Shown piece by piece: positions 14,189 to 60,607 of a DNA stretch of 64,000 nt (position 1 is its first letter; every line of letters begins with the position of its first letter). Origin of the DNA: Escherichia phage FEC14; the sequence record MG383452; one strand, written 5' to 3'. Made by a program: the position numbers and the translations under genes. The notes under the pieces were generated by a model, which was not told where the DNA came from, ran no database searches, and worked only from the letters and a program-made list of their open reading frames with translations.

Positions 14189-14690
14189 TATTGTTCTCCA
14201 GTTCATAATCCCGTTCTTTAACATATTCATAAAGACGAGAAGTAATTCGGTCGGCATTGCCTGTGGTATTCTTCACAACCCAACCGCTCGTAAGGACATC
14301 CATTTTATATCCGTCATCGCTATCTTGAAAATAACTTTTAATTGATTCAAGCCGACGACGTTTATGAAAATATGGTATTAATTCGCCAATGATGACACAC
14401 TCGGGATAATGCTTATCCAGAGTGTTTATGTCTCGTTGTACCCAAACCGGAATAACATCATCCTCTTCAATTGGGCTGTACGTTGGATCAACGATAATCA
14501 CATTGAATCCATAATTCAATAAATCTTTAACTCCCAGCCACCCGAATTTCATATCGGACACGGTCATGGCGACATTCTTTATCCCCAATTTATTTGCAAA
14601 ATCTGTGAGTAATACAAAAAAGTCCGTGTTTGCATCCGGATAATTAATTGCGAGTTGCTCCCCCACTTTACTGAAACAGAACGCGTGCAT
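14166..14690 (-). CDS. hypothetical protein (174 aa)
   Basis: ORF track; GAGGA RBS. Confidence 0.45.
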   Translation of the reverse strand: MHAFCFSKVGEQLAINYPDANTDFFVLLTDFANKLGIKNVAMTVSDMKFGWLGVKDLLNYGFNVIIVDPTYSPIEEDDVIPVWVQRDINTLDKHYPECVIIGELIPYFHKRRRLESIKSYFQDSDDGYKMDVLTSGWVVKNTTGNADRITSRLYEYVKERDYELENNNAKRRTR

Positions 14691-14703: not shown

Positions 14704-14711
14704 TATAAATA
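14704..14711 (+). promoter_or_regulatory. T4-type late promoter TATAAATA
   Basis: exact TATAAATA 28 nt upstream of ATG 14740, GGAG RBS between. Confidence 0.5.
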
Positions 14712-14739: not shown

Positions 14740-15546
14740 ATGAATTTACCATCATTGCCCAAAACTGAGAGAACACATAAAAGTGATTTCTGGCCGACTG
14801 TGATCAAATACCGCGCCTTTACAGCAGGGCAACAGACCATGTTACTTCAGGTTGCTGATCCGAACACTCCTATGAGTGAGCGCGTGGCAACATTGGAGCA
14901 ACTATTTGACAGTTGTGTTGATGCTGGCGTTCCCTTTAGTAAACTGCCAATCGGTGTTACTGAAGAAGTATTTTTAAAGATGCGCTGTATATCTATCGGC
15001 GAGGTCATGAAGATACGTTACAAATGTAATAACAAAGTTCAAGCCGAAACCAATGAAGGTGGTGAAGAACCAGTTTCTGGCCTTAAAGATTGTGGTCAAG
15101 AGCTTGTGTTACCGATCCCGCTCAATCAAGTAAAATGCGTGTCCCCAGAAGGCTTCAGGGAGACGTTTGATCTACCAGGTGGTTATCATATAAAGATGCG
15201 CCAGCCGTCCTTCTCGGATGCCTCAGTGCTTAATGAAGCATCCTCTGTTGAACAAATGATTGCCACCTTTATCGATTGTCTGTATGACGACGATGGTCAG
15301 GTTTGGAAGGTGGAAAATCCGGCTGAACCTGGTATCGATCCAGAAGTTGCTAAAGAACGCCAACGCATTAAGGATGAATTTGTCAAATGGGTTGGGGACA
15401 ATATTGAATCCGAGATTGTTCAGGACATTTCGAATGATTTCTTTAAAAAGATTCCGCGTATTCGTTACGCGACAAAAATTAAATGCCCTTCGTGTGGGAA
15501 AGAACACGAAGTCAAATTTAACAGTGTCACTGAGATTTTCATTTAA
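14740..15546 (+). CDS. late protein, putative baseplate component (occupies the gene-53-like slot upstream of gene 5)
   Basis: 268 aa; late promoter; C-terminal CPSCG zinc-ribbon-like pair; function by position only. Confidence 0.45.
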   Translation: MNLPSLPKTERTHKSDFWPTVIKYRAFTAGQQTMLLQVADPNTPMSERVATLEQLFDSCVDAGVPFSKLPIGVTEEVFLKMRCISIGEVMKIRYKCNNKVQAETNEGGEEPVSGLKDCGQELVLPIPLNQVKCVSPEGFRETFDLPGGYHIKMRQPSFSDASVLNEASSVEQMIATFIDCLYDDDGQVWKVENPAEPGIDPEVAKERQRIKDEFVKWVGDNIESEIVQDISNDFFKKIPRIRYATKIKCPSCGKEHEVKFNSVTEIFI

Positions 15547-15695
15547 TTTTTGAAATTGATTTACTCTCCTATTTTGTGATGTGTGACGAATTAAAGGCAC
15601 ACGGCTATAGCATATTTGAAATCAGTGAATCGATGCCGTGGCATCTTGATTTGCTTACCGAGACACTGAAAATTAGATTGTCTAAGAAATCTTCC

Positions 15696-15722
15696 AACCC
15701 CACGTAATGTGGGGTTTTCTTT
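15696..15722 (+). terminator. rho-independent terminator
   Basis: AACCCCAC-GTAAT-GTGGGGTT hairpin followed by TTTTCTTT. Confidence 0.5.
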
Positions 15723-16052
15723 GCTTACCTGTATTACCGTTTAAGAAAGGATTGTTTAACCCGAAATTGCTATAACACCATTGTTCCTGATATGAATGTT
15801 GTGTAAATCTGTTTTGAATTTGTTTTGAAACAAAAATAATGCTTTTCTACGCATGTTCTGAGGTGTACAGTATTTTCCTCGCCTTTATGCCTCCATGGCA
15901 TTGGAATGGGACTGCCTGTCAAGGCGGTGTTACGAGCTTCAGCGAGTAGGAACGAAAAGAATAAAGGTTGAACGGAAGCAGAGCTTCCTATAATATATTA
16001 TTCGACAGATTTCAAATCCCCGCCATAAATATCACATGATTCTAATTGACTA

Positions 16053-17678
16053 ATGGGTTTCAATATGTTAGACAACTTGCGTTGGTTTTACGGGCGCGTT
16101 GAAGACGTGAATGATCCCGATCAAAACGGGCGCGTCGCAGTACGCATCTATGGGGTACACACGGAGGATACCACTCTCCTGCCTACCGAATTATTGCCTT
16201 GGGGTAAAATGCTTATGCCAGCATCTAACGCCTCCTCGGCAGGTTTAGGCTGGTCTCCGACGGGTATCACTGTCGGCTCTGACGTTATGGGGTTTGCTTT
16301 GGATGAAGCATATCAGAACATCCGTATTGCATGGGTATGGCCAGCAGCAACACCAACAGATGGGTCAGATACAAACCCATTGGCGCTGGGTCAGGTCGTT
16401 CAATCTATAGAAAGGCAGAAGTATAATGCCGTCGAGAATGTTCCTGTTAAGATTGAGGATGAACCACAACCGGATCCACAACCACCAGTAGACGGATATG
16501 ATCCTGAGAAGTGGATGACCGTGGCTCGTGGGGAATTGGGTGTCAAAGAATATTCTGGTAAGTTCAATAACAACCCAAGGATATTGGAATATCATAAGAC
16601 AACTTCCCTGGGGGCTTCAGAAGATGAAGTTAGTTGGTGCGCGTCGTTTGTCGGATGGGTTCTGATACAGGCCGGATATACATCAACACGTTCTGCTTTG
16701 GCTCGTTCATATTTACAATGGGGATCTCCTCTGTCAGAACCACGTTACGGCGCTGTTGTTGTATTCCGGCGTGGGAACAACCCAACATTTGGTCACGTCG
16801 CATTCGTTCAGAAATTTGACGCCAACTACGTCTGGTGTATCGGGGGAAACCAATCCGATTCTGTGAAGGTGAGTCGCTTCAGCCGCTCATCTGTGTTGGG
16901 TTATCGTTGGCCTGGTCCTGCTACGACAGCATCGGCGGCTCCTGCGCAACAAAATGGTAAATGGTCTGAGCCAATCCCTGATCGTACACCAAAAGTTCAG
17001 GAAACTCCGCCTCCTTCTGGCCGTGTTCAGGATATTGACAACACAGGAGAGGTATCGGTTCCTTCGGCTGGAGGGTCTCGTTATCCATACAACAATGTTA
17101 TGGCTTCTCGAGCTGGGCATATTATGGAGGTCGATGACACTCCAGGCGGGGAACGTTTGCATTGGATGCACTCTTCTGGGTCTTACAAGCAAATGCTTCC
17201 TGACGGTGATGTTGTTAATAAATCAGTCAAAGATCATTATGACCTGACGATGTTCGACAAACGTTATTATGTGGGGGGTGATCATAACCTGACAATTGGT
17301 GGGACTGAAGTACAGCGCAAGAAAGGAGAAGTTTACCACTTACACTCTTCTAACTATTCCAATGTGGTCGCTGGAACAGCGTTGATGAAATTTTCCCAAT
17401 TGGCTGAGATACAGGCACAGAACGTGTTGCGTCTCATCTGTGAAATGTTGGAAGTTTCCAATACTTTGAAAGTGCCTAAAATACTGGCTAGTGAAATAGT
17501 TTGTGATAAGTTGTCGGTGGCGCAGACTATTGAAGGCAACATCAAATATGCTGAAGGCGCTGGTCGCGCCGCCTCACGTGCGGGGGCAACTCCTGTAACA
17601 ACTACAGGCCCAGGTCCAATTGATATAAAACCGGAGTTAGAGGATAACGGTGGCAATTTTGGTGGTAAAGGCGCATGA
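16053..17678 (+). CDS. 5: baseplate hub / central spike protein, gp5-like, with CHAP-like (TIGR02594-type) peptidoglycan hydrolase domain
   Basis: N-terminus LRWFYGRVEDVNDPDQNGRVAVRIYGVH matches T4 gp5 OB-fold start; middle domain EYSGKFNNNPRILEYHKTTSL...WCASFVGWVL...GHVAFV resembles phage tail peptidase; start 16053 or 16065. Confidence 0.75.
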   Translation: MGFNMLDNLRWFYGRVEDVNDPDQNGRVAVRIYGVHTEDTTLLPTELLPWGKMLMPASNASSAGLGWSPTGITVGSDVMGFALDEAYQNIRIAWVWPAATPTDGSDTNPLALGQVVQSIERQKYNAVENVPVKIEDEPQPDPQPPVDGYDPEKWMTVARGELGVKEYSGKFNNNPRILEYHKTTSLGASEDEVSWCASFVGWVLIQAGYTSTRSALARSYLQWGSPLSEPRYGAVVVFRRGNNPTFGHVAFVQKFDANYVWCIGGNQSDSVKVSRFSRSSVLGYRWPGPATTASAAPAQQNGKWSEPIPDRTPKVQETPPPSGRVQDIDNTGEVSVPSAGGSRYPYNNVMASRAGHIMEVDDTPGGERLHWMHSSGSYKQMLPDGDVVNKSVKDHYDLTMFDKRYYVGGDHNLTIGGTEVQRKKGEVYHLHSSNYSNVVAGTALMKFSQLAEIQAQNVLRLICEMLEVSNTLKVPKILASEIVCDKLSVAQTIEGNIKYAEGAGRAASRAGATPVTTTGPGPIDIKPELEDNGGNFGGKGA

Positions 17679-60283: not shown

Positions 60284-60607
60284 AATATAGTGGGGTTCAA
60301 GTCATATTTGACGCAAATTAGTATCGCGTGTTTGTAGTTATAGAACAAGTGATAAATTGCCCTACGCGCGATAAATAAATGCCTGACGGCATTTATAATA
60401 TTCTGTTTTAATAAAACCTTTCTTTATCAGTCTACTCGCTTCGCTCGTGATAATACTCGTTGCTCGCAAAGCTCACAACTCGTATATTACGCACGGATTG
60501 TTCAACAAGAAAGCGATTTTTATTCAACAAGTAAAATATTTTATTTGGTCTAAACAGAGCATGACATTATTATGTAGCCAAGTTTGCTAACACGTGAGAA
60601 ATAATAT
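60284..60607. promoter_or_regulatory. AT-rich divergent control region upstream of gene 45 with palindrome over a TATAAT and CTCG-repeat array
   Basis: TAAATGCC-TGAC-GGCATTTA palindrome at 60376-60395 overlapping TATAAT 60394-60399; repeated (T/A)ACTCG(C/T)T motifs 60430-60490. Confidence 0.3.

Follow-up and report, generated by a model that had tools for sequence, protein, structure and literature searches.

A conserved, covarying structured element ahead of the baseplate gene gp5 in Ackermannviridae phages, with paralogs ahead of gp6 and gp45

The window, a 64,000-nucleotide stretch of Escherichia phage FEC14 (MG383452), is part of an Ackermannviridae genome of the genus Kuttervirus (Det7/ViI-like). 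Here, the 506 bases between the baseplate genes gp26 and gp5 (15547-16052) were analysed, which a first-pass annotation had described as a gene-free region serving as a regulatory hub or encoding an unannotated small RNA. Direct reading and scans agreed with it that no ORF of at least 60 codons lies wholly within these bases, and no tRNA or tmRNA was detected. The layout is best explained as a small gene, a terminator, a structured element, a small hairpin followed by TATAAT and the late promoter of gp5, in this order. The genes and the features flanking the structured element are the following:

14704-14711, + strand: late-promoter motif TATAAATA ahead of gp26 (motif scan)
14740-15546, + strand: gp26 baseplate hub gene (Pfam T4_baseplate, PF12322, E 1e-51; annotation of relatives)
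15546-15707, + strand: small conserved gene (53 codons from the ATT at 15546; 42 codons from the ATG at 15579)
15696-15722, + strand: intrinsic terminator of the operon of gp26 and the small gene (scan: nine pairs, five of them G-C, a 3-nt loop and a T-run)
15974-15996, + strand: hairpin GGAAGC-AGA-GCTTCC (15974-15988), then invariant TATA(A/G)TAT (alignment of relatives)
16024-16031, + strand: T4-type late promoter CATAAATA for gp5 (ATAAATA invariant in eight genera)
16053-17678, + strand: gp5 baseplate hub/lysozyme gene (the ATG of relatives is equivalent to 16065)

The description as gene-free proved wrong, as a conserved small gene occupies 15546/15579-15707. Its product matched phrog_9633 over the full length of the profile (positions 1-49 of 49, E 5.6e-37), and the homolog from Vibrio phage D503 matched the same profile with E 7.5e-6, while a Pfam profile search of the small protein returned no match. 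The records of Det7 (gene 92), LIMEstone1 (ORF060) and SKML-39 include the gene and call its product a hypothetical protein. Its start overlaps the stop codon of gp26 (TAATT), with ATT as the start codon here and ATG in relatives; the start contexts of homologs are TAATG in Aglimvirinae and Vibrio phage D503, TGATC in phiMAM1 and TAATA in phiEa2809, and in the alignment of relatives the variation at third codon positions extends upstream of the first ATG/GTG. The small gene is best explained as translationally coupled to gp26. A fusion of gp26 and the small ORF by -1 frameshifting is unlikely: upstream, the -1 frame stays free of stops over no more than 3-8 codons, and a slippery site of the form X XXY YYZ is missing. 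In T4, gene 51 directly follows gene 26; the small gene likewise lies directly 3' of gp26, and its protein gave a weak match to phrog_634, ‘baseplate hub assembly catalyst’ (E 0.0016, profile positions 60-107 of 121), which together with a second match (E 0.1) spans only positions 60-113 of 121. The small protein differs from this family in its length, having 42-58 residues compared to 121 profile positions. From gene order and profile match, it may possibly be a hub assembly factor similar to gp51 of T4. The ‘intergenic gap’ of many deposited genomes conceals a real small gene with a non-ATG start.

The direct repeats and the palindrome which the first-pass annotation had relied on are present and are not the functional features of the region; what had been overlooked is the small gene, together with the pseudoknot element and its paralogs. 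The two copies of TTTGCTTACC are exactly 70 bp apart (15650-15659 and 15720-15729, one base from where they had been placed), and the direct repeat TGTTTTGAA lies at 15810-15818 and 15821-15829. In an alignment of relatives both pairs were lost outside Kuttervirus, and they are most likely due to chance or specific to this lineage. The GATGCC-GT-GGCATC palindrome (15632-15645) is produced by the codons of a conserved peptide, M-P-W-H, in which only the third position of the Pro codon varies, and was therefore ruled out as an operator. The direct repeats were also rejected as iterons or MotA boxes, because they are neither conserved nor accompanied by a properly spaced -10. MotA boxes read (a/t)(a/t)TGCTT(t/c)A and have a TAnnnT -10 element 11-13 bp downstream; 12 bases beyond the TTTGCTTA repeats we found AAATTA or TTTAAG instead, and these boxes, the first of which is inside coding sequence, are not kept outside Kuttervirus.

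We confirmed both the strong terminator and the near-consensus late promoter that had been proposed. The terminator hairpin, AACCCCACG-TAA-TGTGGGGTT at 15696-15716 followed by TTCTTTGCTT, holds the stop codon of the small gene in its loop, and it combines a G+C-rich stem-loop, an immediate T-run and a position at a gene end, as intrinsic (Rho-independent) terminators do. Its stem is kept in eight genera with compensatory changes (AACCCC/GGGGTT versus AATCCC/GGGATT and others), and the LIMEstone1, Mutine and Magnus records list it as a terminator. The late promoter CATAAATA is conserved across genera and has the appearance of a T4-type late promoter, with a -10 similar to TATAAATA, no -35 and a position a few tens of bases upstream of a virion gene; it lies 22-34 nt before the start of gp5, and only four matches to the motif were found in the window, two of which lie 29-42 nt before the starts of gp26 and gp5. 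Just these two signals, the terminator and the gp5 promoter, are already present in the annotation of LIMEstone1, the latter as ‘putative late promoter’. Scans for sigma-70 promoters and terminators gave counts no higher than those of shuffled sequences, and only the terminator was convincing. The term regulatory hub is fair to the extent that a conserved terminator closes the late operon of gp26 and the small gene and a conserved late promoter restarts before gp5. The hairpin at 15974 has a stem that differs by genus yet remains complementary (GGAUGC/GCAUCC, GGCUGC/GCAGCC, GGCGGC/GCCGCC) around a loop of 3 to 4 nt. In Vi01, CRW-SP2 and phiMAM1, the bases immediately 3' of ATAAATA are predicted to form a hairpin with the ribosome-binding region; masking of the ribosome-binding site by a hairpin across the late promoter was rejected as not conserved, such a hairpin being absent in the window, Taipeivirus and Aglimvirinae.

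Between the terminator and the late promoter lies an element of about 120 nt (15831-15951, + strand) with a core of 69 nt (15883-15951). In order, it comprises an A/T box and a first hairpin, then an H-type pseudoknot, and finally two more hairpins, one of 7 bp and one carrying tandem G.A pairs. The parts, together with a candidate promoter upstream, are the following:

15768-15776, + strand: extended -10-like TGCTATAAC, candidate host-type promoter for the element (AAATTG(C/T)TATAA(C/T) in six of eight genera)
15831-15850, + strand: M1 box CAAAAA-TAATG-CTTTTCTAC (A-run, 3-5 nt, T-run; A and T runs invariant in the gp5, gp6 and gp45 copies)
15851-15874, + strand: H0, weak hairpin with the conserved loop (G/C)UGUA (RNAalifold)
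15887-15909, + strand: H-type pseudoknot (covariation, all cells paired)
15887-15891 with 15897-15901, + strand: pseudoknot stem S1, AUGCC with GGCAU, 5 bp
15893-15896 with 15906-15909, + strand: pseudoknot stem S2, loop CCAU with AUGG, 4 bp
15911-15928, + strand: H2, 7-bp hairpin ACUGCCU-GUCA-AGGCGGU with a U.G pair (100% paired)
15932-15947, + strand: H3, hairpin ACGAGC-UUCA-GCGAGU with tandem G.A/A.G mismatches (module common to all copies)

No -35 was found for the candidate upstream promoters, which a simple sigma-70 scan did not report. H0 has one compensatory pair (UA/CG) between Limestonevirus and Taipeivirus and is poorly paired in Kuttervirus itself, and its CUGUA is kept across all three paralog classes.

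The core is more conserved than its neighbours, with 82-91% identity across genera compared to 68-78% for the coding DNA of gp26 and gp5. Over the 20 pairs of its five helices, 99.6% of the base-pair cells are paired in 24 distinct sequences, as opposed to 24-50% when the partners are slid. Compensatory double changes occur in six pairs, with at least one in each multi-pair helix including the pseudoknot stem, and the observed covariation score was reached by none of 500 shuffles. RNAalifold recovered S1, H2 and H3 on its own, indels of 1 nt are confined to loops, and the folding energy of the region does not stand out (MFE z-score -0.7). The pseudoknot is of the H-type, with the loop of S1 paired to downstream bases, loops of 1, 0 and 4 nt, and support for both stems. 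In S1, both partners of two pairs differ between the gp5 and gp6 copies (AU to CG and UA to AU), and the support for S2 comes from one variable pair, an A-U that is replaced by C-G in eight of the 24 distinct sequences (16 AU and 8 CG, no exceptions). H2 has two double-changed pairs (CG to UA and UA to CG) and two wobble changes. In H3, the outer C-G becomes U-A in Aglimvirinae, and the gp6 copies have a variable hairpin inserted within the loop. The structure is strand-specific: the U.G pairs and tandem G.A pairs exist on the + strand only.

Using a covariance model, we found the full core exactly twice per genome, once upstream of gp5 and once upstream of gp6, across 26 genomes or contigs, and no further full core elsewhere in a complete Det7-type genome. 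A third match was a partial copy:

60425-60540, - strand: partial paralog upstream of the gp45 sliding clamp gene (covariance model, sequence and annotation)

The gp45 copy lacks the pseudoknot and H2 but contains the M1 box and H3 (CACGAGCGAAGCGAGUAG, 60449-60432), along with a long hairpin (60482-60456) in which the tandem G.A motif occurs twice. It is conserved in three genera, with compensatory changes in both hairpins. No copies were found in the genome beyond the gp5, gp6 and gp45 loci, and a regular-expression search for M1 over the whole genome showed the extended box and its flanks to be common to only three loci. In all genera, the copies are oriented toward the downstream gene. The H3 module upstream of gp5 is also present in the more distant relatives phiMAM1, phiEa2809 and Vibrio phage D503, in the last of which a TATAAT immediately precedes it and the ribosome-binding site follows some 20 nt later. 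A pattern scan of viral contigs returned only genomes of about 155-160 kb plus three high-GC chance matches, and a scan of metagenomes returned two true matches, both of them gp6-type copies; by these scans, the element is restricted to Ackermannviridae. A match in an ‘Enterococcus phage’ was rejected as a sign of spread to other phage families, the record being a mislabelled Kuttervirus contig. None of the 4227 models of Rfam 15 matched the whole window at gathering threshold, only chance snoRNA matches (E 0.5-7) were seen below threshold in 15400-16200 with E up to 10, and the gp6 copies, gp45 copies and distant gp5 loci were likewise matchless. A literature search found no Ackermannviridae transcript data and no description of the element.

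The reading that we tentatively prefer, at a little less than an even chance, is that the element is a member of a family of protein-binding 5'-leader RNAs that are structured and strand-specific; its function we infer, as we do its transcription, the start and end of the RNA, the protein partner and the regulatory outcome. Each genome would produce three such paralogous RNAs, ahead of gp5, gp6 and gp45, from weak host-type promoters located 50-75 nt upstream of the A/T box, which would fire earlier than the late promoters. The common module, a tandem-G.A hairpin closed by GC-GNA-GC, is most likely the putative docking site for a phage or host protein, to which the gp5 and gp6 copies would add a pseudoknot-plus-hairpin domain. 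Whether pre-late transcription continues into the downstream gene, or whether that gene is translated from the pre-late transcripts, would depend on binding, and the late transcripts of gp5 and gp6, which would initiate 3' of the element, would escape this control. Several observations argue for a leader over a stand-alone small RNA: the hairpins 3' of the element have no good U-tracts, downstream of the gp45 copy about 170 nt, up to the start codon, are near-invariant, and in LIMEstone1 a TATTAT upstream of the gp45 copy, on the strand of the element, is annotated as ‘putative promoter’. Against a leader, besides the missing -35 of the candidate promoters and the unremarkable folding energy, gp5 and gp6 have a conserved late promoter downstream of the element, so that the main late mRNA would not contain it, and two baseplate genes and a sliding clamp share no obvious regulatory logic.

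The same late promoters make the element separable from the late mRNA and thereby fit an alternative, somewhat unlikely in our view, in which the three paralogs are stand-alone small RNA genes acting in trans by protein sequestration or mRNA pairing, each transcribed from a promoter of its own close to the A/T box and ending at the small hairpin downstream. The compact core is indeed followed by a hairpin at 15974-15988 (gp5), as AAATGCC-GTCA-GGCATTT (gp45) and as AACGC..GCGTT+TTTGATT (Kuttervirus gp6). In addition, the gp5 and gp6 cores evolve in concert, with the same S2 change in both copies in Taipeivirus and CRW-SP2, a pattern that a shared trans partner would produce. However, besides the poor U-tracts, the gp6 ‘hairpin’ is lost outside Kuttervirus, where only the CGCGCGAG box is kept, the hairpin is replaced in the gp45 copies of Taipeivirus, and no promoter consensus can be assigned beside the A/T box. 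The earlier suggestion of an unannotated small RNA is borne out only partly, by a conserved, strand-specific and covarying structure between terminator and promoter that may be either a stand-alone small RNA or a leader. The conserved junction and loop bases would also be compatible with the binding pocket of a riboswitch; no known class matched in Rfam, and no expression platform could be defined.

It is improbable that the copies are replication origins or priming sites, at which a promoter-driven structured RNA would form an R-loop at a downstream purine-rich stretch, as at T4 oriF/oriG and with ColE1 RNA II, or hairpins would form in single-stranded DNA. There are a few copies per genome, located where gene orientation diverges, the A/T box resembles an unwinding element, A-rich linkers follow H3, and T4 has its oriE near gene 5. 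Moreover, DNA too can form stable tandem G.A pairs in a Y-GA-R context, and GCGAAGC is a very stable DNA mini-hairpin. However, every copy is oriented like the gene downstream of it, an origin would not be expected to have a pseudoknot whose loops are conserved, iterons are absent (such short direct repeats as occur are not conserved), and the turn in GC skew at 14-16 kb is uninformative because it merely tracks gene orientation. Conservation of sites in double-stranded DNA, such as promoters and transcription-factor operators, in place of a folded strand is highly improbable. The promoter-like hexamers TGCTATAAC, TATAATAT and CATAAATA and the recurrence of the CGCGCGAG box upstream of late promoters in several copies would fit such sites, but both arms of five helices co-vary while their loops differ by 1-15 nt, a pattern that fits hairpins better than dimer-binding sites; H3 is no DNA palindrome (CGAGC/GCGAG), and U.G and G.A pairs are meaningless in duplex DNA. 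Hardly credible is a coding function of the core for the small peptide MPPWHWNGTACQGGVTSFSE (15887-15949, + strand) or other annotated short ORFs: an ORF in this frame beginning with MPPWHW(N/K)G(T/A)AC was recovered in several genera and two GenBank records annotate short ORFs here, but frame, start and stop are not preserved among relatives, no Shine-Dalgarno precedes the ATG, which is CAG in all gp6 copies by changes exactly compensatory in S1, and the C-terminal halves are unrelated, diverging after residue 11 (QGGVTSFSE, IGRFDERSE, VRRSSRA and others) because of frame shifts caused by 1-nt indels in the loops of H2 and H3.

Returning to the structured leader, among its closest parallels are the nutL/nutR boxB of lambda and putL/putR of HK022, in which a small hairpin is the docking site for a protein or RNA polymerase. 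As in these systems, a few paralogous short structured RNAs point toward the downstream gene and lie downstream of a promoter (a candidate one here) and upstream of terminator-like hairpins. However, as judged by the Rfam searches, the element has no sequence or covariance-model similarity to them; it has no boxA and no GNRA-like pentaloop, and T4-like phages are not known to use N- or put-type antitermination. The leader pseudoknot of T4 gene 32 is similar in being a compact H-type pseudoknot well upstream of the start codon in a T4-related phage, and the hairpins that mask ribosome sites of late genes in early T4 transcripts (for example of gene e) are paralleled by the long pre-late and short late transcripts that we infer; the element differs in having no homology to these T4 operators and leader pseudoknots and in carrying two more hairpins after its pseudoknot, and the hairpin masking the ribosome-binding site is not conserved. 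With the ‘motif’ candidates of Rfam from phage and metagenome intergenic regions, the element shares conservation above that of neighbouring genes, compensatory changes, variable hairpin insertions and a fixed gene position, but it matches no Rfam model and occurs in Ackermannviridae only. Tandem G.A/A.G pairs flanked by Watson-Crick pairs are a common protein-recognition feature, and H3 and the long hairpins present 5'-(C/U)GAG-3' opposite 5'-CGA(G/A)-3' with such flanks, similar to the tandem sheared G.A pairs of kink-turns. H3 is not a kink-turn itself, because its ACGAGC/GCGAGU helix is continuous and no 3-nt bulge adjoins the G.A pairs.

Ackermannviridae such as ViI, CBA120, Det7 and LIMEstone are widely used for biocontrol of Salmonella, E. 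coli O157 and Dickeya, and to our knowledge nothing is known of their post-transcriptional control. Spurious ORFs are annotated over the RNA element in several records. In T4-type phages, the sliding clamp is an activator of late transcription. The core and the tandem-G.A hairpins could represent a new class of phage regulatory RNA that binds a phage protein or RNA polymerase and couples expression of the sliding clamp to gp5 and gp6, a proposal which we consider distinctly unlikely as it stands. If true, the genes that start baseplate hub and wedge assembly would be coupled to the clamp by a post-initiation timing device undescribed in the T4-related family. A noncoding element in three copies, more conserved than the adjacent structural genes and with a pseudoknot supported by covariation, provides a testable handle on the timing of baseplate and clamp expression.

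Over the 1.9 kb surrounding the intergenic region between gp26 and gp5 (15547-16052), the window shares 99% identity with many genomes of the genus Kuttervirus (Det7, ViI and CBA120 group; family Ackermannviridae). Between genera (Kuttervirus, Taipeivirus, Agtrevirus and Limestonevirus), the whole intergenic region aligned at ~74% identity. All sequence features listed by the first-pass annotation were found, with coordinates right to within one base, and no ORF of at least 60 codons lies inside the region. The observation was only partly confirmed because, although the features are real, the region it had described as gene-free contains a gene: its first third is a conserved small protein gene.

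Features of the gp26-gp5 locus
14740-15546, gp26 baseplate hub gene (Pfam T4_baseplate, E 1e-51)
15546-15707, plus strand, small gene (phrog_9633)
15632-15645, GATGCC-GT-GGCATC palindrome
15650-15659 and 15720-15729, TTTGCTTACC repeat
15696-15716, terminator hairpin followed by a T-run
15810-15818 and 15821-15829, TGTTTTGAA repeat
16024-16031, CATAAATA late-promoter motif
16053-17678, gp5 hub/lysozyme gene

A hypothetical protein of 42-49 residues is annotated right after gp26 in relatives (Det7 gene 92, LIMEstone1 ORF060, SKML-39 gp099), and the small protein of the window matched PHROG family 9633 over its full length (E 5.6e-37). It also weakly matched phrog_634, 'baseplate hub assembly catalyst' (E 0.0016), the family of T4 gp51, whose gene adjoins gene 26 in T4. 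In Vibrio phage D503, an MPWHL-bearing homolog also follows gp26, though D503 gp26 is only 31% identical. The palindrome represents codons ATG-CCN-TGG-CAT of the MPWHL motif, and its centre varies as the proline third position. In the window's ORF, the first ATG/GTG comes only after the codons for the N-terminal residues of the family, FEIDLLSYF, and the codon at the family start position overlaps the gp26 stop in a lineage-dependent manner, being ATG (TAATG) in Aglimvirinae and Vibrio phage D503, ATT (TAATT) in Kuttervirus and Taipeivirus, ATC (TGATC) in phiMAM1 and ATA (TAATA) in phiEa2809. Among the non-ATG genomes, changes in the first ten codons fell mostly at third positions, and no Shine-Dalgarno sequence could be read before the internal ATG 15579. 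We infer that the small gene is probably started by termination-reinitiation at the near-cognate AUU. With the -1 frame open for just 3-8 codons upstream and no slippery heptamer present, a -1 frameshift from gp26 is unlikely. Most deposited Kuttervirus records omit the small gene or begin it at ATG 15579 (window 15544-15579).

Eight genera preserve the terminator stem, with compensatory substitutions between them (AACCCC/GGGGTT, AATCCC/GGGATT, others), and the late-promoter ATAAATA is invariant in the same alignment; exactly these two features were annotated at this locus by the LIMEstone1 authors (PMC3296691). YATAAATA has four matches in 64 kb, which is a chance number, and two of the four are followed at a distance of 29-42 nt by the start codons of gp26 and gp5. 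A perfect TATAAATA at 14704-14711 precedes the gp26 start by 29 nt and agrees with the late promoter annotated there in LIMEstone1. The gap that holds it is 50 nt long and divergent, the minus-strand genes on its other side ending at 14690. For gp5 itself, ATG 16053 (MGFNMLDN...) and ATG 16065 (MLDN...) are both available; the latter appears the likelier start because the remaining genera all have the second ATG alone (ATGTTAGA). The direct repeats, by comparison, did not hold up as meaningful signals: neither pair is kept outside Kuttervirus in the alignment of relatives, the first TTTGCTTACC copy is coding sequence, and both TTTGCTTACC copies read without a -10 element at MotA-promoter spacing after them. 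Both the TTTGCTTACC and the TGTTTTGAA pair are treated here as chance or lineage-specific.

Conservation was unexpectedly high further downstream, where a 69-nt core (15883-15951) showed 82-91% identity across genera, compared to 68-70% for the coding DNA of gp26 and 74-78% for that of gp5, with one-nt indels confined to loops. BLAST placed this sequence twice per record, the second time in front of gp6, the baseplate wedge gene of the same genomes, and a structure was derived for the plus strand from the alignment of the gp5-upstream and gp6-upstream copies.

Helices of the core
15887-15891 with 15897-15901, plus strand, S1 (AUGCC with GGCAU)
15893-15896 with 15906-15909, plus strand, S2 (loop CCAU with AUGG), forming an H-type pseudoknot with S1
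15911-15928, plus strand, H2 (ACUGCCU with AGGCGGU)
15932-15947, plus strand, H3 (ACGAGC with GCGAGU), with tandem G.A/A.G mismatches inside

Standard pairs occupied 99.6% of pair cells (24 distinct sequences) versus 24-50% after sliding the partners by 1-3 columns. Double (compensatory) changes occurred at six pairs, each multi-pair helix containing one or more of them, and the observed covariation score was reached by none of 500 shuffles. RNAalifold, run without a supplied structure, recovered S1, H2 and H3 and also gave a weaker 5' hairpin, H0, with a conserved (C/G)UGUA loop. The single-sequence minimum free energy was ordinary (z = -0.7); the case for the predicted fold is comparative, not thermodynamic. 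The S1 arms (ATGCC...GGCAT, 15887-15901) repeat words of the small-gene palindrome (ATGCC-GT-GGCAT, 15633-15644), which is probably a coincidence because the gp6 copies have CAGCC...GGCTG. Downstream of the core, an A-rich linker is followed by a hairpin, GGAAGC-AGA-GCTTCC (15974-15988), and an invariant TATA(A/G)TAT. The stem of this hairpin is genus-specific yet complementary (GGAUGC, GGCUGC, GGCGGC) with a variable loop length, and is thus also a folded-strand feature; no U-tract follows it, and transcription should traverse it.

In all genomes and contigs examined, a covariance model built from the core (R1) found two full copies and no more, one before gp5 and one before gp6, and it gave no further full copies in a complete Det7-type genome (window plus records L060-L062). 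The S2 pair changed in concert in both paralogs of Taipeivirus and CRW-SP2, which may be due to gene conversion or to a trans partner common to the two copies. The third-best match in the window was an isolated H3 (60430-60455, minus strand), belonging to a third paralog, only partial, that precedes the gp45 sliding-clamp gene (60425-60540, minus strand). This copy has an A-run/T-run box (AATAAAAATCGCTTTCT; gp5-copy counterpart CAAAAATAATGCTTTTCT at 15831-15848), then a long hairpin carrying two tandem G.A motifs, and H3 (CACGAGCGAAGCGAGUAG), and lacks the pseudoknot and H2. Three genera conserve it, and both of its hairpins show compensatory changes. Genome-wide pattern scans found no element modules outside the three loci, and scans of IMG/VR and JGI metagenomes recovered the core from Ackermannviridae-like contigs only. 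Upstream of gp5, the more distantly related family members phiMAM1 and phiEa2809 retain the A/T box, tandem-G.A hairpins and H3, the pseudoknot being missing, while Vibrio phage D503 has an H3-like hairpin, GGGGU-GAGC-GAA-GCGA-ACCCC, directly 3' of TATAAT. The single hit that looked foreign, 'Enterococcus phage Efm 3-10', was rejected as a foreign carrier: OR844942.1 and OR844944.1 (UNVERIFIED_ORG) are identical to the Kuttervirus gp6 upstream region and gp6 gene, and are mislabelled or contaminated Kuttervirus contigs.

Several side observations concern these loci and other parts of the genomes. In the gp6 copies of all genera, the gp45 copies and the gp5 copies of phiEa2809, phiMAM1 and CRW-SP2, the late-promoter motif is preceded at 10-29 nt by a recurrent box, CGCGCGAG(A/G) or CGCGCGTAGGG (records L012 1680-1740, L084 2630-2670 and L010 1940-1965; window 60345-60365, minus strand), which is missing from the Kuttervirus gp5 copy. 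Beside the gp45 element, LIMEstone1 has a UvsW helicase gene interrupted by I-LimI, annotated as an intron/homing-endonuclease insertion (record L105 1110-3001; LIMEstone1 87109-89703); the Det7 annotation shows one uninterrupted gene. Det7 also has ~1.4 kb without annotated feature between genes 200 and 201 (133625-135058; record L062 826-2259), just downstream of a tRNA cluster.

Overall, each genome carries three structures that are strand-specific and kept by selection; all share a tandem-G.A hairpin module, and two also have the pseudoknot domain. The proposal of a regulatory hub or an unannotated small RNA survives in part, as a regulatory junction with an unannotated structured RNA candidate, the evidence cited for it being mostly incidental. 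Our preferred reading, held tentatively and at somewhat under an even chance, is that the elements are protein-binding 5' leaders of pre-late transcripts. A trans-acting sRNA family is a distinctly weaker prospect because the hairpins downstream of the element are poor terminators, ~170 nt of near-invariant sequence joins the gp45 copy to its start codon, and the H3-like hairpin of D503 is followed after ~20 nt by the gp5 ribosome site. It is improbable that the elements serve as an origin, a primer RNA or a single-stranded DNA element. Duplex-DNA protein sites are a little less credible still, as the gp6 copies contain additional hairpins of 15 nt (within the H3 loop) and 30 nt (before S1, with two tandem G.A motifs) and loop lengths vary, which argues for folded strands. 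A peptide encoded over the core is barely conceivable: several genera have a plus-frame ORF beginning MPPWHW(N/K)G(T/A)AC, and short ORFs are annotated here in some records, but loop indels shift the frame after residue 11, so that the remainder bears no relation from one genus to another, and the stop codon is not fixed. All gp6 copies have CAG in place of the ATG, with changes precisely compensatory in S1, and a ribosome-binding site is lacking.

For the leader reading, the folding strand is the sense strand, since U.G and G.A pairs are possible on the plus strand only and every copy is oriented toward its downstream gene. The closest systems by analogy are paralogous phage antitermination sites (lambda nut, HK022 put) and T4 leader structures (the gene 32 pseudoknot; early-transcript hairpins masking late-gene ribosome sites), with no homology to any of them. 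In the gp5 leaders of Vi01, CRW-SP2 and phiMAM1 (records L011 ~1675-1705, L009, L010), a predicted hairpin pairs post-ATAAATA bases with the ribosome-binding region (ACCCAU or ACCCUGA with AUGGGU or UCAGGGU), a T4 lysozyme-type arrangement that would mask translation only in transcripts begun upstream of the late promoter; it is not kept in the window, Taipeivirus or Aglimvirinae. No K-turn bulge or boxA/boxB was found in the element, no copy matched Rfam 15 (E up to 10), and the literature search found no paper describing the element and no Ackermannviridae transcriptome. The element would form a new RNA family, though one of a known type (phage leaders or ncRNA motifs with conserved structure), and its predicted structure and paralogy are solid and previously undescribed. 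Weak host-type promoters lying 50-75 nt before the A/T box would give rise to the RNAs, candidates being the extended -10-like TGCTATAAC at 15768-15776 for the gp5 copy (kept in 6/8 genera) and TATTAT, an annotated promoter on the same strand in LIMEstone1, for the gp45 copy. Tandem G.A helices are typical protein-docking sites, and we therefore propose that each element may act as a protein-binding operator controlling extension or translation of the pre-late transcripts that it leads, while late gp5 and gp6 mRNAs, beginning at the downstream late promoter, would bypass it.
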